This document shows positions 26,862 to 34,256 of a DNA stretch of 64,000 bases, one piece after another. How positions within the stretch are numbered: the first letter of the stretch is position 1; each line of letters opens with the position of its first letter. The position numbers and the translations under genes are program-made. Under the pieces are notes generated by a model, which searched no databases, was not told the DNA's origin, and was given only the letters and a program-made list of their open reading frames with translations. This DNA comes from Candidatus Brockarchaeota archaeon (lineage in GTDB: Archaea > Thermoproteota > EX4484-205 > JAAOZP01). The stretch covers positions 11,826 through 75,825 of the forward strand of contig JAFNIT010000002.1 of assembly GCA_017601345.1 (NCBI GenBank), in the 5' to 3' direction.

Positions 26862-28211
26862 CTAACTCATGAACTTGATTATACCGTTATCATTTATAAA
26901 GCCCTCGATCTCTCCGTAGACCCCGTCGTAACCCGGTCTAATTCTAACCCTATCCTCCCTAACCATCCTTATTGCATAAGCCAATTTTTTATCATATTTC
27001 CCAAGGTCCTCAAGCGGTGTTTCAAGGAGTACACTATACTCGTTTCCGAACCTTCTTATCATATCATAATATATGTTCCAAGCTTTTTTAGAACTAGGCC
27101 TTATAGAATATACGTATCCTATTATTTCTGAAAGCGGTATGAGGTGGACATAATCCGAAGCATCCCTAGGCCTTACCCCCCTTGGGCGATCAGCAAGCTC
27201 CTCGATATGAGTTTCAACCCCTGGAGTGAGCCTCTTACCACAAATCGGACAGATTCCCTTTAACTCGAAATAATTATCCGGTTCAGCATAAAAAGAACAT
27301 CCCCTGTGACCAGGGTAGTGATACTTTCCATATTCTGGGTGGGTTTCAATAGTTAGGATTATCCTAGACTTGCCTTTTTTACGGACCGCATTCAATATGC
27401 TCTTATAGCTTAGTTCTTCGAGAAGCATGAGGTTAGCCTCTCTGCCAAGTCTCCAAGGGTAATGAGAGTGCGAATCACTATTGGAAACCAGAGTGTAACG
27501 GTCATTGCTTGAAACCCTCCAGTTCATTAACGGGTCTGAGGATAAGCCTGTTTCCAATGCATGTATCTCCTTATACTTGTCCTTGTAACACTCCTTCACA
27601 CTATTATAGCCGTGGATGCCGAAAATGCTGAAATGTGGAGTCCATACGTGGGCTGGGAAAATCTCTATCTCGTCTGAAACACTCTTTAAGATTTCAACAA
27701 GCTCTGGAGAAGAACATTCGAGCAAGGGCCTTCCGTCAGCACGGATATCACCAATATGCTTTAAAGCATCACAGACCTGTTCCACAGTTTCAAAATCCGG
27801 GAAGAGCAGCACGTGATGTATTCTCTTAATAGCATTTCCATCCCGATAAATAGTGCTAACTTCGCCTTGAATCAGAAACAACACTGCTTTTTCAGGTTCT
27901 TTCTCACTCTTAAGCATGTAGAGTCCGGAAAATGCTTCTACAAGTTTCTCCTTCAACTCCTTAAGCCACCGGGGATGAGTACAGTCGCCAGTGCCAACTA
28001 TTTTCAAGCCTTTCAGCCTAGCGCAGAAGGCAATGTTCTCAAGAGTCATGTCGGCACTTGTCGCTCTACTGTACTTGGAGTGGATATGCATGTCAACGTA
28101 GCAGGGAAGCCTGTCCCTGAGGTTTTTGAGAAGCTGTTCAATCCTTGTCGAAGCTAAAAGAAGCTCTGAAGATTTAACAGAAGGATTATCCATTCTCGGA
28201 TGCGAAAGCAA
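26862..28211 (-). CDS. Endonuclease Q family (PHP domain plus Zn finger)
   Basis: DMHIHSKYSRATS, GTGD.THP, AHVWTPHFS, ETGLSSDP..N, SNSDSHS..LGRE, YGKYH..GHR.C..CPICG. Confidence 0.9.
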   Translation of the reverse strand: MLSHPRMDNPSVKSSELLLASTRIEQLLKNLRDRLPCYVDMHIHSKYSRATSADMTLENIAFCARLKGLKIVGTGDCTHPRWLKELKEKLVEAFSGLYMLKSEKEPEKAVLFLIQGEVSTIYRDGNAIKRIHHVLLFPDFETVEQVCDALKHIGDIRADGRPLLECSSPELVEILKSVSDEIEIFPAHVWTPHFSIFGIHGYNSVKECYKDKYKEIHALETGLSSDPLMNWRVSSNDRYTLVSNSDSHSHYPWRLGREANLMLLEELSYKSILNAVRKKGKSRIILTIETHPEYGKYHYPGHRGCSFYAEPDNYFELKGICPICGKRLTPGVETHIEELADRPRGVRPRDASDYVHLIPLSEIIGYVYSIRPSSKKAWNIYYDMIRRFGNEYSVLLETPLEDLGKYDKKLAYAIRMVREDRVRIRPGYDGVYGEIEGFINDNGIIKFMS

Positions 28212-28367: not shown

Positions 28368-28874
28368 CTAGATTTTAAAAATCCTTTTTAAAAATCTTCC
28401 GCAAATCCAAGACGATGCCCCGAGAACAAGTAGAGCTAATGACAAGTATGTTAGATCTCTCTCAAAACCCCAGAAGGTTAAAACTATCTCCACATCTACT
28501 GTTGATACCCCCCTATTCTTCACAACAACATAGTATTCTCCTCTCATAGGTATTTCGAAATTAATCACCTCGCTTTTTAATCCTTTGAATTCCTTCAGCG
28601 GAATGGCATACCCTGATCCAATGAGCGCATCGTAATTGGGCCTGTCGAAGATCAGAAGGTCTATCTCCCCACCGCTTAAATAAACAGCGATTCTAACGTT
28701 TCTAGGAGGCCAAATCGGAGGCATGAATAATTTGGAGGTAGAATTGCCCGGGGGACCTAAGTGTGAGGTAAAGACTTGGGCAGGGAGACCACGCAGAACT
28801 GTTAAAAGAGAAACTCCTAAGCCAACCATTATCATCACCGTCCCGATATAACAGAGTGCTGATAACCTAGTCAA
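28368..28874 (-). CDS. Membrane protein with N- and C-terminal TM helices flanking a beta domain
   Basis: Hydrophobic termini; stop/start overlap with the permease gene. Confidence 0.75.
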   Translation of the reverse strand: MTRLSALCYIGTVMIMVGLGVSLLTVLRGLPAQVFTSHLGPPGNSTSKLFMPPIWPPRNVRIAVYLSGGEIDLLIFDRPNYDALIGSGYAIPLKEFKGLKSEVINFEIPMRGEYYVVVKNRGVSTVDVEIVLTFWGFERDLTYLSLALLVLGASSWICGRFLKRIFKI

Positions 28875-29610
28875 GCTGCAACACCACTTTCATAAAGAAG
28901 AATGCGAATGAAAGGAGGGCAAGGGGGAAAAGTAGATGCATAAGTATTATCCCCCATGTGTAGACCGTTATCTCACCGAGAAGAACAAGCTTCAACAGGA
29001 TGTACGTGGGATCTATGTTTAGAGGATTTACAGTGCTTATCATTGAAGAAATGCTTAGAAGGAGGATGTTTTCTAAAAAGTAGATTGCTATCGCCACTAT
29101 CACGGCTCCAAACCTGCTTTTAAGAACAATGCTCATAAGAATAGTAATTGAAACAATGAGAAGAAGAGATATCGCATCTACAAGAACCATTGACATTATT
29201 GGGATAAGAGGTATCGATGCAGTTATGATCCATGTGGAAAACAACGTAGAAATAAAATCTATTAACAGTATCACCGAGAAATTGATTATAAGCTTTACAG
29301 CGAAAAGAGTTTCCTTCCTTACTGGAAGGGTCAACTCCCCCATTAAAACATCCTGCTCAATATCCCTGCCGAAGGAGTTTGCGAACGTTAAGATTGCTAT
29401 TAAGCATAGGAATAACTGTTTAAAGCCCCCCATGCTGGATAAGGCTATTCCGAAAGCGGATTCTTGAACATTTATTGGAGCTGCATTTCCCGGGCATCCT
29501 AAAATAAGCAGCATGAGCATTAAGCCCACGTAGGGAGCAGACCAGACCCTTTCAAGCTCAAACCTAATATTCTCAACCAGTGGAATATTTTTGATAAACT
29601 TAACTCTCAT
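28867..29610 (-). CDS. ABC-2 type exporter permease
   Basis: About 6 TM helices; FGRDIEQ..L.GELTLPV.K..LF..K ABC-2 pattern. Confidence 0.8.
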   Translation of the reverse strand: MRVKFIKNIPLVENIRFELERVWSAPYVGLMLMLLILGCPGNAAPINVQESAFGIALSSMGGFKQLFLCLIAILTFANSFGRDIEQDVLMGELTLPVRKETLFAVKLIINFSVILLIDFISTLFSTWIITASIPLIPIMSMVLVDAISLLLIVSITILMSIVLKSRFGAVIVAIAIYFLENILLLSISSMISTVNPLNIDPTYILLKLVLLGEITVYTWGIILMHLLFPLALLSFAFFFMKVVLQLD

Positions 29611-30508
29611 GCCTCTCCTCCTCTAAAGCCTTTAAAAACACGTTCTCCAAGCTCCTCCCAAACTGGTGGAAGCCCAATATCTCATTACCTGTTTTAATGA
29701 CCAAATTTAATAGTTCCTGGAGAAAAATCGAAGCATCGCCCTTAATATATACAGTGTCCTTAACAAGTCTGACTTTTAAACCATTTAAACCGCTTAGGGC
29801 TTCTGCAAGCTCTCTAGGCTTGGAAACCCTTATCGCATATATTTTTGAAGCATACTTGTCCAAAAGGTCGTCTATAAAACCCTGTTCGATAGCTCTTCCC
29901 TCATTCATCAAGCAAACCCATGAGCATACTCTCTGCAACTCAGGCAGAACGTGGCTAGATATTAGAAAGCTAATGTCTTCATCTCTATGCATTGTTTTAA
30001 TGAGTTTTAAAAGTTCGATACGGCCCCTCGGGTCCAGGTTAGAAGTAGGCTCGTCGAGAATCACTAGCTCAGGCCTTCCCACTATGGCTTTAGCAAGACC
30101 TAGGCGAATCTTCATGCCTGAAGAGTATCCAGAAACCTTTCTATCAGCATGATTAAGTAGACCAACTTTACGAAGCGCTTCAACGGCCTCCTTTTCCGGA
30201 AGACCCATCACCCTAATCACATGAAGCATGTAGCGCATACCACTAACGTTCGTAGGGAAAACAGGCCTCTCCAGCAATACTCCGACTTTCCTCATCAACT
30301 CATATCTCTGAGACCAAGGTTCCAAGCCCATGACCTCCACTCTCCCGGAATCTGGTTTAATCAACCCCGTAAGCACATGGATCAGCGTCGTCTTACCAGC
30401 ACCATTAGGACCTATAAGGCCATTTATACCTTTCGGCACTCTTATGTTCAAGCCATCAAGTGCATTAACTTTATTGAATGACTTGAATAATTCTTCTACA
30501 ACTATCAT
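29600..30508 (-). CDS. ABC exporter ATP-binding protein
   Basis: GPNGAGKTT, YSSGMKIRL, ILDEPTSNLD, SSH. Confidence 0.92.
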   Translation of the reverse strand: MIVVEELFKSFNKVNALDGLNIRVPKGINGLIGPNGAGKTTLIHVLTGLIKPDSGRVEVMGLEPWSQRYELMRKVGVLLERPVFPTNVSGMRYMLHVIRVMGLPEKEAVEALRKVGLLNHADRKVSGYSSGMKIRLGLAKAIVGRPELVILDEPTSNLDPRGRIELLKLIKTMHRDEDISFLISSHVLPELQRVCSWVCLMNEGRAIEQGFIDDLLDKYASKIYAIRVSKPRELAEALSGLNGLKVRLVKDTVYIKGDASIFLQELLNLVIKTGNEILGFHQFGRSLENVFLKALEEERHES

Positions 30509-31491
30509 CGAGGCTCCCTACCCTTCTTCTTTCTCCTGAAACGCAGGTAATAAGCAATGACGCTAGCTACGACTACCGAGGGTAGGACAAACAATAGTAA
30601 TATCCCGGTGAAAACACCTATCAGATTCTGGGGACCCAGATCAATGTTGGTGTAGACAAGCTTAAAATCTCCTCCTGAGAAATACACTATACCGAAGGCT
30701 GAGAGAAAAGCATCCTGTTCAATATCGCCTTCGATCATTATAAAGGTGTCAGCATCGTAAAGATTGATTCTCGGAGAAAAGTGTCTTATGGATTGTGCTT
30801 CCGCAGGGGTGATTACTTCATTCCCAATTATACCAATATACCCCCTACCTTGATGTTCTGACGCATCTACAAACAGTATGTCCTGTACTCCTTGAGGAGT
30901 GCTTAGACTCAAAACATTGTACGCAGTGGCAAATATGGTTGAATTGGCTTGACCAACATACGGAAACCTCTCTCCCTTTTTGCATGGAGGAATCCAAAAT
31001 ATTGTTTTTCCAAGATACGTGCCGTTTAATAAATACACGTCTCTTGTTTCTAAATCCACTCTCAGGCTTAGCGTCGAAGAATACTGTCCTATTTCCAGAG
31101 TTACTTGAAAAATACCAGTCGAGTCTTCAAGCTCCTTAAGAACTAAAGAAATACGGGCCGGCACTTCCTCCCCAAATTCCCCCAGCTGAACTATCACCCT
31201 AGCTGAACTGCCGTTTGACAATATTTTTGAGCCAGGCGTACTGAGCAGTGCCTGAGGAATCAATTTGTCATCAAAGAAGTAAAAATAAATCTCTCTTATG
31301 CGTGTCTCATAATCAAAACGTGCACCATTCCTCGTCCAAGCGGGTTTACATGCAGTAATTAAGGGTGATAGACTAAGTAGAATTAAAAAAAGGTAAAAAA
31401 ACAGTTTATTTTTTCTTCTCAGCAACTTTTCAACCCTCTCTACGGTTCGACTCCGGCCGACGCCCGTAGGGTATAAGTTGCAGGAGCCCAA
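30505..31491 (-). CDS. Secreted, C-terminally membrane-anchored protein of unknown function
   Basis: Basic-then-hydrophobic signal (RRKNKLFFYLFLILLSL), C-terminal TM and RFRRKKK tail; real start probably downstream of 31491. Confidence 0.7.
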   Translation of the reverse strand: MGSCNLYPTGVGRSRTVERVEKLLRRKNKLFFYLFLILLSLSPLITACKPAWTRNGARFDYETRIREIYFYFFDDKLIPQALLSTPGSKILSNGSSARVIVQLGEFGEEVPARISLVLKELEDSTGIFQVTLEIGQYSSTLSLRVDLETRDVYLLNGTYLGKTIFWIPPCKKGERFPYVGQANSTIFATAYNVLSLSTPQGVQDILFVDASEHQGRGYIGIIGNEVITPAEAQSIRHFSPRINLYDADTFIMIEGDIEQDAFLSAFGIVYFSGGDFKLVYTNIDLGPQNLIGVFTGILLLFVLPSVVVASVIAYYLRFRRKKKGREPR

Positions 31492-31949
31492 GGAACGAGA
31501 TTATAGGTGTATACAGATTCACCCTCTGTACAAACACGCCAGAATGATCCTGCTCTCAACTCTGCGTATCCTCCTGTTGTAGCGTCGTTGAACGTTTTTG
31601 TATAAGTATCGTAATTACGCGTCATTGTAATTTTAAGTTTCACAGGTGTGATCAGGAGGGACCAGAGGCCACTAGGCATAGATCTTGACGCAGAGTGAAA
31701 GGCATAGTCGAAACGAGTACCTTGTGAATCATATCTTCCTTCAGCAAGAACCCAGATACTCATAGCCCCGCCAAAAAGCTTATCCTCGCCTGTCAACCCC
31801 TTCCATGTGCCAGGTGTACCAGAACCAATCGTTATGAGCATTAGTCCGCTTGCTGCAAGTAGGGAGAGTATTGCAATTACACCGGAGATTATTAGACTAA
31901 GTCTCTTCAACTCTCTCAGTGTTACCACCTCCATAAGCCATGTATTCAT
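31440..31949 (-). CDS. Small secreted protein of unknown function (first gene of the exporter cassette)
   Basis: LKRLSLIISGVIAILSLLAASGLMLITIG signal or anchor followed by ~120 aa of beta-rich, Thr/Gly/aromatic sequence; AT-rich upstream region. Confidence 0.65.
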   Translation of the reverse strand: MNTWLMEVVTLRELKRLSLIISGVIAILSLLAASGLMLITIGSGTPGTWKGLTGEDKLFGGAMSIWVLAEGRYDSQGTRFDYAFHSASRSMPSGLWSLLITPVKLKITMTRNYDTYTKTFNDATTGGYAELRAGSFWRVCTEGESVYTYNLVPWAPATYTLRASAGVEP

Positions 31950-32160: not shown

Positions 32161-32520
32161 CTATCTTGCTCCAGCCTCCGCCTCCCCCGCCTACTCCTCC
32201 ACCCACTCCACCGCCACGCTACTTGGAGGGCTCCACGTGGTTATTGATACGAATACTATAGACATTGTTTGAAGTATCTTCAGCTTCTCGATCTGAATTC
32301 CGAGTTCTCTCATCGCTTCAGCAACCTTCCCTACTCCCAGCGCTATACCGTAGACAAGCCACTCTTCCCATATTTAAATATCCTGTGGAGCATATTTTCT
32401 GATTAGGGCTAGGTCTGAAAGGAATTTCTTGAAGGCGCCCCGCCCAAGCTTCTCCCTGTAGTATGATGCTTTCCACCTGCAGAAGAGCGTTGTGGACATA
32501 GCCATCGCGTAAGCTTGTTA
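32161..32520 (-). pseudogene. C-terminal remnant of a DUF2207-family membrane protein
   Basis: [50 protein letters not shown], then a frameshifted Gly-rich tail GGGVGGGVGGGGG; in-frame TAA at 32374-32376. Confidence 0.75.
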
Positions 32521-32621
32521 AGCATGCTCTGCATATGTATTAGAAGTACTTCTTCTCACTGTTTGAAACACCTTGATGGAATCATGCTTTTAAACTTTTA
32601 CAAAATTCCTGAAAACGTTTT

Positions 32622-32822
32622 GGGCCCAGGCTGGTAGGCTCATCTCCCCCAATCCGCTTTTCAACAAGCCTGAGGAAGATGCTTTTACCCCGCAACGCTC
32701 CCGGGAAGGTGCTTCAACCTCCCTACGGGTTTCGAGCCCAATCCCCATAGTTGAGGCGGCTTGTCCCCCTCCGAGAGCGTTGAGACCTGCCGAGTATTCC
32801 CCGGCAGGAGCCTGGTCTACCC
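32622..32822 (-). ncRNA. Candidate structured non-coding RNA (~201 nt), family unrecognised
   Basis: Four nested helices found by eye, three containing G-U pairs that work only on the minus strand; TATA-like TTATTTA about 25 nt upstream; U-rich 3' flank. Confidence 0.55.
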
Positions 32823-32863
32823 GTATGAAGCGAGGGGTTGAGAAAGTAAATAAGAGTTGCGCT

Positions 32864-33430
32864 TCAGCCTTTCTCTCTTGGAGGCGCTTTAATAGAGAGA
32901 TAGAGTACTATTGCGAATGCTATGAGCAGGCTTACGGATATTGTTCGGGAAGCCTCTACGCTAATTCCTAAACGTGGGAGCGAGAGCTGTATCATCGGGA
33001 TTGCGAAGATTACTACTGCTGAGAGTAAGAATAGTATTTCTCTGAAGGATGGCTGGGTTAGTTTACCACCTTTTGCCGAAAATACGTAGGCAACTATTCC
33101 TATTGATGCTAGGAGGACTGAGGCTAAAACTGGCACGGTAGAGGCCCAGCCTCTGGTGAGCATCTGGACCCCCATGATTATTGATACTATGAAACTGGAT
33201 GCGAAGCATCTGACTCCCACGCTCCTAAGCCTCTGACTGATCTCCATCTCTTTAAGGATGATCGGTATTCCCGACCCGGATAATATGAGTATGGAGCTTA
33301 ACAAGTTGATCCCCGTCCTCAGGAATCCTGAGACTTCTACTACTGAGAAGAGGGCAAAGGAAACTAGTATCGCAATACCTATGAAGACTAGGAGGTTCCC
33401 GATTGAATATACTGCTTCTCCTTTCTGCAA
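32864..33430 (-). CDS. Hypothetical multi-pass membrane protein
   Basis: 188 aa with about 6 hydrophobic segments; follows trmI. Confidence 0.7.
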   Translation of the reverse strand: MQKGEAVYSIGNLLVFIGIAILVSFALFSVVEVSGFLRTGINLLSSILILSGSGIPIILKEMEISQRLRSVGVRCFASSFIVSIIMGVQMLTRGWASTVPVLASVLLASIGIVAYVFSAKGGKLTQPSFREILFLLSAVVIFAIPMIQLSLPRLGISVEASRTISVSLLIAFAIVLYLSIKAPPREKG

Positions 33431-33458: not shown

Positions 33459-34256
33459 TTAAATATTTTCCCTAACGACTTTGGCTCCGAACATGAGGTA
33501 CGCTGTATGGCCGATCATAATGGATTCTGGCCTAACCCTGCCCTCGAAGGGCCTTATTCTCCTGAGCATTATCTCAACCGTCTCCAAGTGAGCTACACCC
33601 GTCTCCAGCATCGCACGGTAAACCTTTTCAAGCTGGTTCATAGTTGGCACGATTATGCATATTCTTGCAGAAGGCTTTAGGAATCCGACTACTCTGCTCA
33701 GCGCATCCCACGGGTCTGGAATATCCATTATAGCAGCGTCGAAAAAACCTTCTAGAAAAATACTCTTAATATCGCCTTGCATCAGCTCAACGTATTCTGC
33801 CAAACCGGCTTTCTCAAGATTCTTACGCGCGATTCTTATGGACTCCTCGTTCACGTCGCAGGAGAAAACTCTACCGTTAGGCTTAACGATGCTCGCAACA
33901 ATCATCGTAGCAGCACCGCTCCCGGTGCCGGCTTCAAGAACCCTAGCTCCCGGCGATATTCCCAGATTCAGAACCATGTAGCCGATGTCCTTGGGATACA
34001 TTACTTGAGTCCTTCTTGCAAGCTTGGGAATATATTCTACTACGAGGGGCCTTAACGCGAGCATTTCCTCCCCTATGTGCGTCTTCACAACTGTTCCAGG
34101 GGGCTTACCTACAATATCCTTAGTAACCAGATAACCCTTGTGAGTATGGATTCTATCGCCCTGTATTTTCACTATACGTCTCTTAAATCTCGGGGAAACG
34201 AGTAGAACGTCATCGCCCTCTTTAAACACGTTGTCAAGATCCTGCTTCAAACCCAT
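33459..34256 (-). CDS. trmI: tRNA (adenine-N1)-methyltransferase
   Basis: RRTQVMYPKD, VLEAGTGSGA, DAAIMDIPDPW, HTAYL. Confidence 0.92.
   Translation of the reverse strand: MGLKQDLDNVFKEGDDVLLVSPRFKRRIVKIQGDRIHTHKGYLVTKDIVGKPPGTVVKTHIGEEMLALRPLVVEYIPKLARRTQVMYPKDIGYMVLNLGISPGARVLEAGTGSGAATMIVASIVKPNGRVFSCDVNEESIRIARKNLEKAGLAEYVELMQGDIKSIFLEGFFDAAIMDIPDPWDALSRVVGFLKPSARICIIVPTMNQLEKVYRAMLETGVAHLETVEIMLRRIRPFEGRVRPESIMIGHTAYLMFGAKVVRENI

Follow-up and report, generated by a model that had tools for sequence, protein, structure and literature searches.

The archaeal splicing endonuclease acts on the bulge-helix-bulge (BHB), a succession of helix, 3-nt bulge, 4-bp helix, 3-nt bulge and helix, and the piece excised at a BHB is circularized by RtcB (PMC4731332, PMC7714728). 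TACK-type EndA has two subunits and a relaxed motif specificity (PMC7714728, PMC4731332); for relaxed endonucleases one bulge may suffice (PMC4731332). The closest precedent for the RNA described here is the circular permuted SRP RNA of Thermoproteus tenax and T. uzoniensis (Plagens et al. 2015, PMC4731332). Its gene has a TATA element 26 nt upstream, the BHB formed by its leader and trailer is cut by a splicing endonuclease of the heterotetramer type, and RtcB makes a stable functional circle (PMC4731332). The stems of archaeal 16S and 23S pre-rRNA likewise contain BHBs, where excision is followed by circularization to give circular intermediates (PMC7714728, PMC12918454). BHB introns also release structured RNAs, among them the box C/D sRNA in the tRNA-Trp intron and the intron of the HVO_1309 5' UTR (PMC7714728).

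We examined a 64-kb stretch of DNA from a Candidatus Brockarchaeota archaeon, referred to below as the window, which carries on its minus strand a gene for a structured RNA (Table 1). It is close to certain from the evidence presented here that this RNA belongs to an undescribed family, and that it is a real, independently transcribed member. Like the Thermoproteus SRP RNA it comes from a stand-alone structured RNA gene in Thermoproteota, with TATA at much the same place (~26 nt upstream in Thermoproteus). Unlike that RNA, which is recognizable as SRP RNA and is permuted, the new one matches no family and has no sign of permutation; moreover the window's genus lacks the leader-trailer helix, and for the new family cleavage and circularity are predictions from sequence. 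With the archaeal 16S and 23S pre-rRNA stems it shares flanking inverted repeats and the 3-nt/4-bp/3-nt BHB (PMC7714728, PMC12918454), but those stems are much longer and lie in operons, whereas here the gene is monocistronic, the outer helix short and the product ~200 nt. The geometry is also common to the archaeal BHB-intron RNAs, which are BHB-bounded segments released by EndA and circularized; these sit inside a host tRNA or mRNA, whereas the new RNA has no host and its "exons" would consist of the outer helix only. By these analogies the family looks like a set of stand-alone genes that are matured like miniature rRNAs.

Table 1. Positions of the RNA gene, its parts and nearby features in the window
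Feature	Position	Strand	Remarks
RNA gene	32619-32822	minus	~202-205 nt; 5'-GGGUAGACCAGGCU ... AGCCUGGGCCCAAA-3'; full-length covariance model (CM) matches
BRE/TATA promoter GCAACTC TTATTTA	32845-32862	minus	TATA centre ~27 nt upstream of G1
P1 5' strand GGGU	32819-32822	minus	base-paired to GCCC, 32622-32625; forms the central helix (4 bp) in the BHB geometry
5'-strand bulge AGA	32816-32818	minus	P1/P2 boundary; candidate splicing-endonuclease site
P2 5' strand CCAGGCU	32809-32815	minus	pairs with AGCCUGG at 32626-32632; closes the junction; 6/7 pairs compensatory
P3 hairpin (P2 of the initial annotation, 9 bp)	32786-32808	minus	lower 5 bp conserved; 5/5 modelled pairs covary
P4 arm (P3 and inner stems of the initial annotation)	32690-32785	minus	long interrupted helix, 32765-32782 pairing with 32693-32709; 5x5 internal loop ACAAG/AAGCA
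P4 apical loop GAUUGGGCUCGAAA	32730-32743	minus	most conserved unpaired element of the family, G-A-Y-UGGGC-N2-3-GRAA
P5 arm (P4 of the initial annotation)	32633-32689	minus	GGUA/UACC, 4x4 internal loop AAAG/AGCC, 12-bp helix (32670-32681 with 32641-32652), cap GCUU-GUUGAA-AAGC
3' tail GCCCAAA	32619-32625	minus	GCCC is the P1 3' strand; GCCCAA complements UUGGGC of the P4 loop
Inserted gene cassette	28368-31949		between RNA and EndoQ-like gene
Gene remnant, intact in sister species	32174-32501		between RNA and EndoQ-like gene

An initial annotation, made from the sequence of the window by eye, had drawn four helices on the minus strand and had chosen that strand for its G-U pairs. All four helices were found where it had placed them, its P1 corresponding to P1 plus P2 here, and G-U pairs make up 12 of the 75 pairs in the minimum free energy (MFE) structure, which supports the assignment to the minus strand. 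It had also proposed a comparison of folding energy with shuffled controls: the minus strand folds at -109.8 kcal/mol (z -6.2), and its 200 dinucleotide-preserving shuffles, at -79.0 +/- 4.95, include none as good; the plus strand reaches -79 kcal/mol (z -2.65). The RNA region has 56% G+C over a background of ~45%. The RNAalifold structure for the genus is a four-way junction, closed by P2 and bearing as arms P3, the long P4 and P5; the 4-bp P1 is set off from P2 by the bulge AGA.

The annotation had further proposed a comparison with Rfam, and had set aside SRP RNA, RNase P RNA, tRNA and 5S rRNA for want of their features. At gathering thresholds no Rfam 15 family matched anywhere in the 64-kb window, E-value mode up to E = 10 over 32300-33100 gave noise only, the best being tRNA-Sec (16 bits, E = 3.7), and ten homologous loci had no match at E <= 0.5. 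RNase P RNA (RF00373; type T) was rejected, with no model match up to E = 10; the conserved RNase P P4 sequence elements are by eye absent from the RNA, and the canonical RNase P RNA of the same genome is on another contig (G000:C22:47527-47818, 200 bits). Archaeal SRP RNA (RF01857) gave no CM match, and an SRP RNA is present throughout the genus (17/17 genomes), a canonical one lying at G000:C10:32827-33141 in this genome. There was no match to 5S rRNA (RF00001), a ~120-nt RNA with a three-way rather than a four-way junction; the 5S gene of this genome is at G000:C22:42011-42130, and 24 of the 26 genomes of the class have 5S. For tRNA, tRNA-Sec or a tRNA intron the weak tRNA-Sec score was the only Rfam signal, and ARAGORN found no tRNA in the 64-kb window or at 12 homologous loci. 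The annotation's exclusions stand; this genome encodes RNase P RNA, SRP RNA and 5S on other contigs, and its relatives have them too. A full-text literature search found no account of such an RNA. By these comparisons the RNA family matches no described one and is new to Rfam and to the literature searched, and the proposal of a new archaeal ncRNA is borne out: the RNA has a promoter to itself, its conservation stops sharply at both ends, its helices covary strongly and Rfam has no match for it.

BLAST found exactly one copy of the RNA in each of the 17 genomes of the window's genus, at 82-91% identity, and conservation among these has sharp borders, running from GGGU to CCCAAA. The family was extended with covariance models R1 to R3, built iteratively. 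CM searches place the RNA in 22 of 26 genomes of Brockarchaeia (class Candidatus Brockarchaeota, hot-spring MAGs); it was also found in four genomes of a second Thermoproteota class (G239, G411, G128 and G185), and seven metagenome contigs carry it, these having been found by a motif pattern and then confirmed by CM. Occurrence in the second class is patchy, with 4 of 41 genomes and, in one genus, one of two species. Model R3 found nothing at E <= 1 in 35 Thermoproteota genomes of other families, nor, even at that threshold, in the four Brockarchaeia genomes without the RNA; outside the two classes it had no hit. A motif pattern run over 401 genomes returned only G239 and apparent chance matches, its gap range being too narrow for G017 and G018 of the known members, and a scan of the flanks of EndoQ in 20 second-class genomes added only G185. 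The patchiness may be due to low sensitivity of R3, a model that comes from Brockarchaeia.

Pattern scans of IMG/VR yielded no full-length viral copy and only short motif matches, most of them in one conserved region that is common to related viral contigs and unrelated to the RNA; a viral origin was dropped on these grounds. Nor did the suggestion of an orphan mobile-element RNA survive, given a single copy per genome, conserved synteny (neighbors TrmI, small membrane protein and EndoQ-like gene) and the lack of a full-length viral copy. Compared with mobile-element RNAs such as the omega-RNA of IS200/IS605, group II introns and archaeal mobile introns, the RNA showed neither multiple copies nor a transposase, TnpB or homing endonuclease gene next to it.

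The final alignment of 32 homologues is CM-based and fitted to the model, and hence somewhat favorable to it; standard pairs fill 93.1% of its cells and 60 of 67 pairs show compensatory changes, and not one of 500 shuffles reached any of these measures. When partners were slid by 1-3 columns as a control, pairing fell to 33-49%. A MAFFT-only alignment of the genus, made without a CM, already contains 14 compensatory pairs. Compensatory changes were found in 29 of 31 pairs of the P4 arm (helices 4-8) and in 19 of 20 pairs of the P5 arm (helices 9-11). P1 varies little: it is 4 bp long in 31 of the 32 sequences (3 bp in the metagenome member L100), and its GGG/CCC is near-invariant, each of these three positions being G-C in 31-32 sequences; at the fourth, U-G, U-A, C-G and A-U all occur. 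The bulge that follows on the 5' strand has 3 nt (AGA, AAG, AGG or AUA) in 25/25 genomes and in all but one of the seven metagenome members, the exception again being L100. The tip of P3 is variable in sequence and in length, from 23 nt to ~60 nt, and is of GNRA type in some members. The UGGGC of the P4 apical loop is invariant in 25 aligned sequences and present in 33/33 members, and the rest of the loop consensus is near-invariant.

In all 16 homologues from outside the window's genus, leader and trailer form an outer helix (P0). It is 7-12 bp long and stacks directly on the 4-bp P1, and its sequence differs between lineages and covaries; the 3'-strand bulge between P1 and the outer helix has 3 nt, AGA, AGU or AAA. 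For eight of the genomes outside the genus the flanks form duplexes of -15 to -21 kcal/mol that abut P1, and each strand has its bulge where one is expected. The outer helix is present in 7/7 metagenome members, and a 10-bp one was seen by eye in G185. Flank duplexes in the 17 genomes of the genus are at -1 to -5 kcal/mol (z ~0), with an AU-rich vestige in G004. The BHB is canonical in 11 of the 16 and relaxed in G017 (two mismatches in the motif), G018 (one extra nucleotide between P0 and P1), G185, L104/L110 (an internal loop between P0 and P1) and L100 (the 3-bp P1 with 4-nt bulges). The window RNA has the 4-bp central helix, the 3-nt bulge on the 5' strand and the 7-bp inner helix; an outer helix and a bounded 3'-strand bulge are absent from it, as they are throughout its genus. 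Because the genus is without the outer helix and its transcripts would start at G1, we do not count the window RNA as a full BHB substrate, though we do count the family as one. The genus nevertheless keeps GGGUAGACCAGGCU and AGCCUGGGCCCAAA invariant despite loss of the outer helix, which indicates that the terminal module has a role beyond that of a cleavage signal.

Every one of the 17 genus genomes encodes two paralogues of the EndA family (PF01974, above the cut-off), or three in the case of G000, where the loci are C28:99847-100104, C11:265-522 and C5:276-533; two paralogues per genome fits a two-subunit enzyme of TACK type. We consider it likely, on the strength of the conserved geometry, that the family is processed at the BHB and circularized in most lineages; that the window's own RNA is circular we regard as doubtful. 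The BHB reading is evident only from homologues outside the genus, and the geometry had not been seen in the initial annotation.

Archaeal TATA elements lie at a characteristic distance from the transcription start, and this usual value was used for placing the start. With the TATA element of Table 1 at that spacing, the predicted transcription start falls on the first G of P1 or directly beside it. The sequence TTATTTA, already noted by the initial annotation as ~25 nt upstream, lies at 32847-32853, or -31 to -25 from the first G. In 17/17 genomes of the genus (C)GYAAC-N-CTTAATAC occupies -37 to -23, and other flanking bases vary. T-runs are found 3' of the RNA in some species, and most members with P0 have one after the outer helix; several members of the genus have no T-run. 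To judge from these signals this is a stand-alone gene with its own BRE/TATA promoter, its predicted start in the window's genus being the first G of P1.

The initial annotation had proposed a long-range pseudoknot or switch, with pairing of GGGCUC in the apical loop to GAGCCU near the 3' end (32636-32641). This specific pairing was dropped: 79% of cells are paired, there is no compensatory change, and 500/500 shuffles equal it. The general idea of a long-range pairing fared better, as another pairing of the loop with the 3' tail has modest support. The YUGGG(C) of the P4 loop and the (G)CCCAR of the 3' tail pair in 92% of cells, a level reached by 2 of 500 shuffles. At the Y:R position 13 sequences have U-A, 7 have C-G and 5 have C.A, and U-A arose separately in genus g1 and in G023. 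Covariation is confined to this one pair, with its five C.A exceptions; the remaining four or five pairs never vary and hence carry no information. We consider it plausible, at about an even chance, that the apical loop YUGGGC pairs with the tail GCCCAR. As (G)CCCAR consists of the 3' strand of P1 and the first bulge nucleotides, this pairing and P1 would be mutually exclusive.

The neighborhood of the RNA was also examined. Across the genus the order NFACT protein, aminotransferase, TrmI/GCD14 tRNA m1A methyltransferase, small membrane protein and RNA recurs, and the part from TrmI to the RNA is found in two further families; synteny conserved in the class consists of TrmI, small membrane protein, RNA and EndoQ-like gene. 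In the window TrmI is encoded at 33459-34256, and the small membrane protein belongs to no Pfam family. A conserved upstream protein partner was considered and rejected, the ~190-aa membrane proteins of genera g1 and g4 not being detectably homologous. The EndoQ-like gene is of family TIGR00375, with a full-length match that scores under the curated cut-off, and in many Brockarchaeia it is encoded on the strand of the RNA and starts ~70-210 nt downstream. In the window it is at 26862-28211, 4.4 kb from the RNA, with the cassette and gene remnant of Table 1 lying between. From the gene order we conclude that the EndoQ-like nuclease gene is the ancestral downstream neighbor of the RNA. In several members a BRE/TATA-like element separate from the promoter of the RNA precedes the downstream gene. 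The same 22 Brockarchaeia genomes have both RNA and EndoQ-like gene and both went undetected in the same four, but because the genes are adjacent and the assemblies incomplete this shared pattern counts for little as a sign that the two are functionally linked. Within the second class, RNA and EndoQ converge in one family and in one metagenome lineage; the other members show no linkage to EndoQ, and in them the RNA adjoins genes for XPD helicase, FAU-1-like RNase E/G protein, RtcA or RPA-like protein. EndoQ is found there in 34/41 genomes, against 4/41 for the RNA.

On balance we favor a stand-alone ncRNA gene of ~205 nt, BHB-processed outside the window's genus, whose product is, as a guess, a stable protein-binding housekeeping RNA. 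In members outside the genus the 7-12 bp outer helix of leader and trailer, P1 and the two staggered 3-nt bulges would together make the BHB. The two-subunit splicing endonuclease would cut at both bulges and RtcB would join the ends, giving a circle of ~200-230 nt with a 7-nt loop, (G/A)CCCAR-N, that caps P2 and is free to kiss the P4 loop. This geometry assumes that EndA cleaves after the second bulge nucleotide. With the 5' GGG strand removed, or outcompeted, CCCAR could pair with UGGG of the P4 loop and so lock a compact fold. Members of the window's genus no longer have the outer helix, and their promoter has moved up to P1, with transcription predicted to start at the first G; the window RNA is then most likely linear or only half-processed, and P1 and the loop-tail pairing would compete in it. 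This guessed housekeeping role may have a link to the EndoQ-like nuclease gene. A bolder version, in which BHB cleavage, by taking away the 5' GGG strand of P1 and so freeing CCCAR for the UGGG loop, itself switches the RNA into an active circular, knotted fold that is catalytic or recruits proteins, maybe as partner of the EndoQ-like PHP nuclease to which it has stayed linked in two classes, would make this a new functional class and appears to us quite unlikely.

The invariance of P1, the AGA bulge and P2 in a genus that lacks the outer helix and starts transcription at G1 would suit a linear structural or RNP RNA that is never cut by EndA, with P0-P1-P2 as a terminal stem, perhaps a protein site, and the likeness to a BHB incidental. 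So would the near-invariance of the GGG/CCC of P1 across two classes, which goes beyond the needs of a mere cleavage motif. We nonetheless judge a linear RNA unlikely, since most of the 16 independent sequences from outside the genus share the exact 3-nt/4-bp/3-nt geometry, opposite placing of the bulges included, and the sequence of the outer helix covaries freely, a hallmark of known EndA substrates (PMC4731332, PMC7714728). Archaeal introns also typically give BHB-bounded, structured RNAs without ORFs, and the patchy occurrence in the second class, down to one of two species in a genus, could be that of a relic, left between genes by a mobile archaeal intron or by some other mobile-element RNA. 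This is extremely improbable for a one-copy RNA that has its own promoter and lies between the same genes class-wide, with no tRNA or rRNA around it as host exon and no viral copies.

The downstream EndoQ-like gene raises another reading, that of a cis-acting leader, riboswitch-like or protein-binding, for this nuclease gene. The short distance and shared strand of the two in many Brockarchaeia, the joint presence in 22 genomes and joint absence from four, and the lack of a T-run after the RNA in several members of the genus all point that way, but joint absence is to be expected of adjacent genes in incomplete assemblies, the two genes have separate BRE/TATA-like elements, and most members with P0 have a T-run behind the outer helix. 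With the two genes 4.4 kb apart in the window and convergent or unlinked in the second class, where EndoQ is common and the RNA rare, a leader is very unlikely. A ribozyme, whether self-cleaving, ligating or other, with apical loop, internal loops and pseudoknot as its active site, seems slighter still in probability. Its appeal lies in the four-way junction, conserved internal loops, GNRA-type P3 tips of some members and likely pseudoknot, in unpaired nucleotides that are invariant across two classes, and in a size and complexity like those of other large orphan RNAs; against it, no Rfam ribozyme matched, no conserved candidate cleavage site was identified, and the promoter and the BHB already account for the ends. 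We therefore return to the stand-alone gene with BHB processing outside the genus.

To our knowledge few stable archaeal RNAs are known besides rRNA, tRNA, RNase P RNA, SRP RNA and guide RNAs, and a complex RNA of ~200 nt that is class-wide and reaches a second class would lengthen this short list. EndA and RtcB have only a small set of substrates that are neither tRNA nor rRNA, consisting to date of the permuted SRP RNA and a few mRNAs, and this set would gain a new family. The window's genus offers a natural experiment, having dropped the outer helix and kept all else, by which the contribution of circularization in thermophiles could be tested; the invariant apical loop, with P1 and the loop-tail pairing in competition, makes a concrete and testable structural hypothesis.

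Among large orphan RNAs, OLE, GOLLD, HEARO and ROOL come from bacteria or phages and are for the most part larger; all have Rfam entries, none of which matched the new RNA. They resemble it in their multi-helix junctions, conserved internal loops, probable pseudoknot and restriction to certain lineages; we know of none that is BHB-processed. The type T RNase P RNA of Thermoproteaceae, at ~200 nt, is similar in size to the new RNA and has the same order of terminal helices, P1, P2 and P3 hairpin.

In sister species of the window's organism the EndoQ-like gene starts 160-210 nt 3' of the RNA; the window has this gene displaced to a site 4.4 kb from the RNA, with a gene cassette between the two. 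Several sister species have no such cassette at the corresponding position, so that it looks like an insertion splitting an older RNA-EndoQ pair. Also intervening, between the RNA and this export cassette, is a stretch that contains no long ORF and is probably the decayed remnant of a gene, whose intact counterpart in a sister species encodes 609 aa. The homologous EndoQ-like open frame is 804-873 aa in genomes G005, G007, G010, G037 and G411, with an insert of ~400 aa near residue 187 that looks intein-like.

Features in and around the RNA neighborhood (window coordinates unless a locus or contig is named)
Feature	Location	Strand	Remarks
EndoQ-like gene	26862-28211	-	TIGR00375 family; full-length match, score under curated cut-off
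Gene cassette	28368-31949	-	tightly packed; encodes small proteins, secreted or in the membrane, plus an ABC ATPase
Putative gene remnant	32174-32501	-	78% identity over 332 nt to part of sister-species gene
Intact counterpart of remnant	L064 3542-5371
Shared 50-nt stretch	L002 1704-1753; also L003, L004		just 3' of RNA
Region with FAU-1-like neighbor	L121 3146-5656; L079 1972-2988
EndA-family matches in G000	contigs C28, C11, C5

Directly 3' of the RNA, a 50-nt sequence, AAAGTATAAAATGCTGTCCGTTAATGATGTTCGGTTGAAATGAACATTTT, is identical in three species (G014, G004 and G011), despite differences of ~10% among their RNAs. The first bases of this flank in G004 pair with the 7 nt upstream of the RNA. 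This AU-rich pairing is a vestige of the outer helix, the leader-trailer pairing that flanks homologues outside the genus.

In the further Thermoproteota class with homologues of the RNA, a gene for a FAU-1-like protein (RNase E/G and DUF402 domains) adjoins the RNA in two separate lineages, followed at one of these loci (L121) by the gene for RNA 3'-terminal phosphate cyclase (RtcA). Both are RNA-processing proteins; their linkage to the RNA is not general.

About 14 related viral contigs from IMG/VR (within L146-L174) have a conserved region containing GGGATTGGGCGCGAAACC, identical to the apical-loop motif of the RNA. The match was taken as coincidence because the surrounding viral sequence is unrelated to the RNA.

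The EndA family (PF01974) has three matches in the window's own genome (G000), vs. one or two in each of its 16 congeners. Since two of the three lie at contig starts, contamination of the MAG or strain heterogeneity may account for this count.
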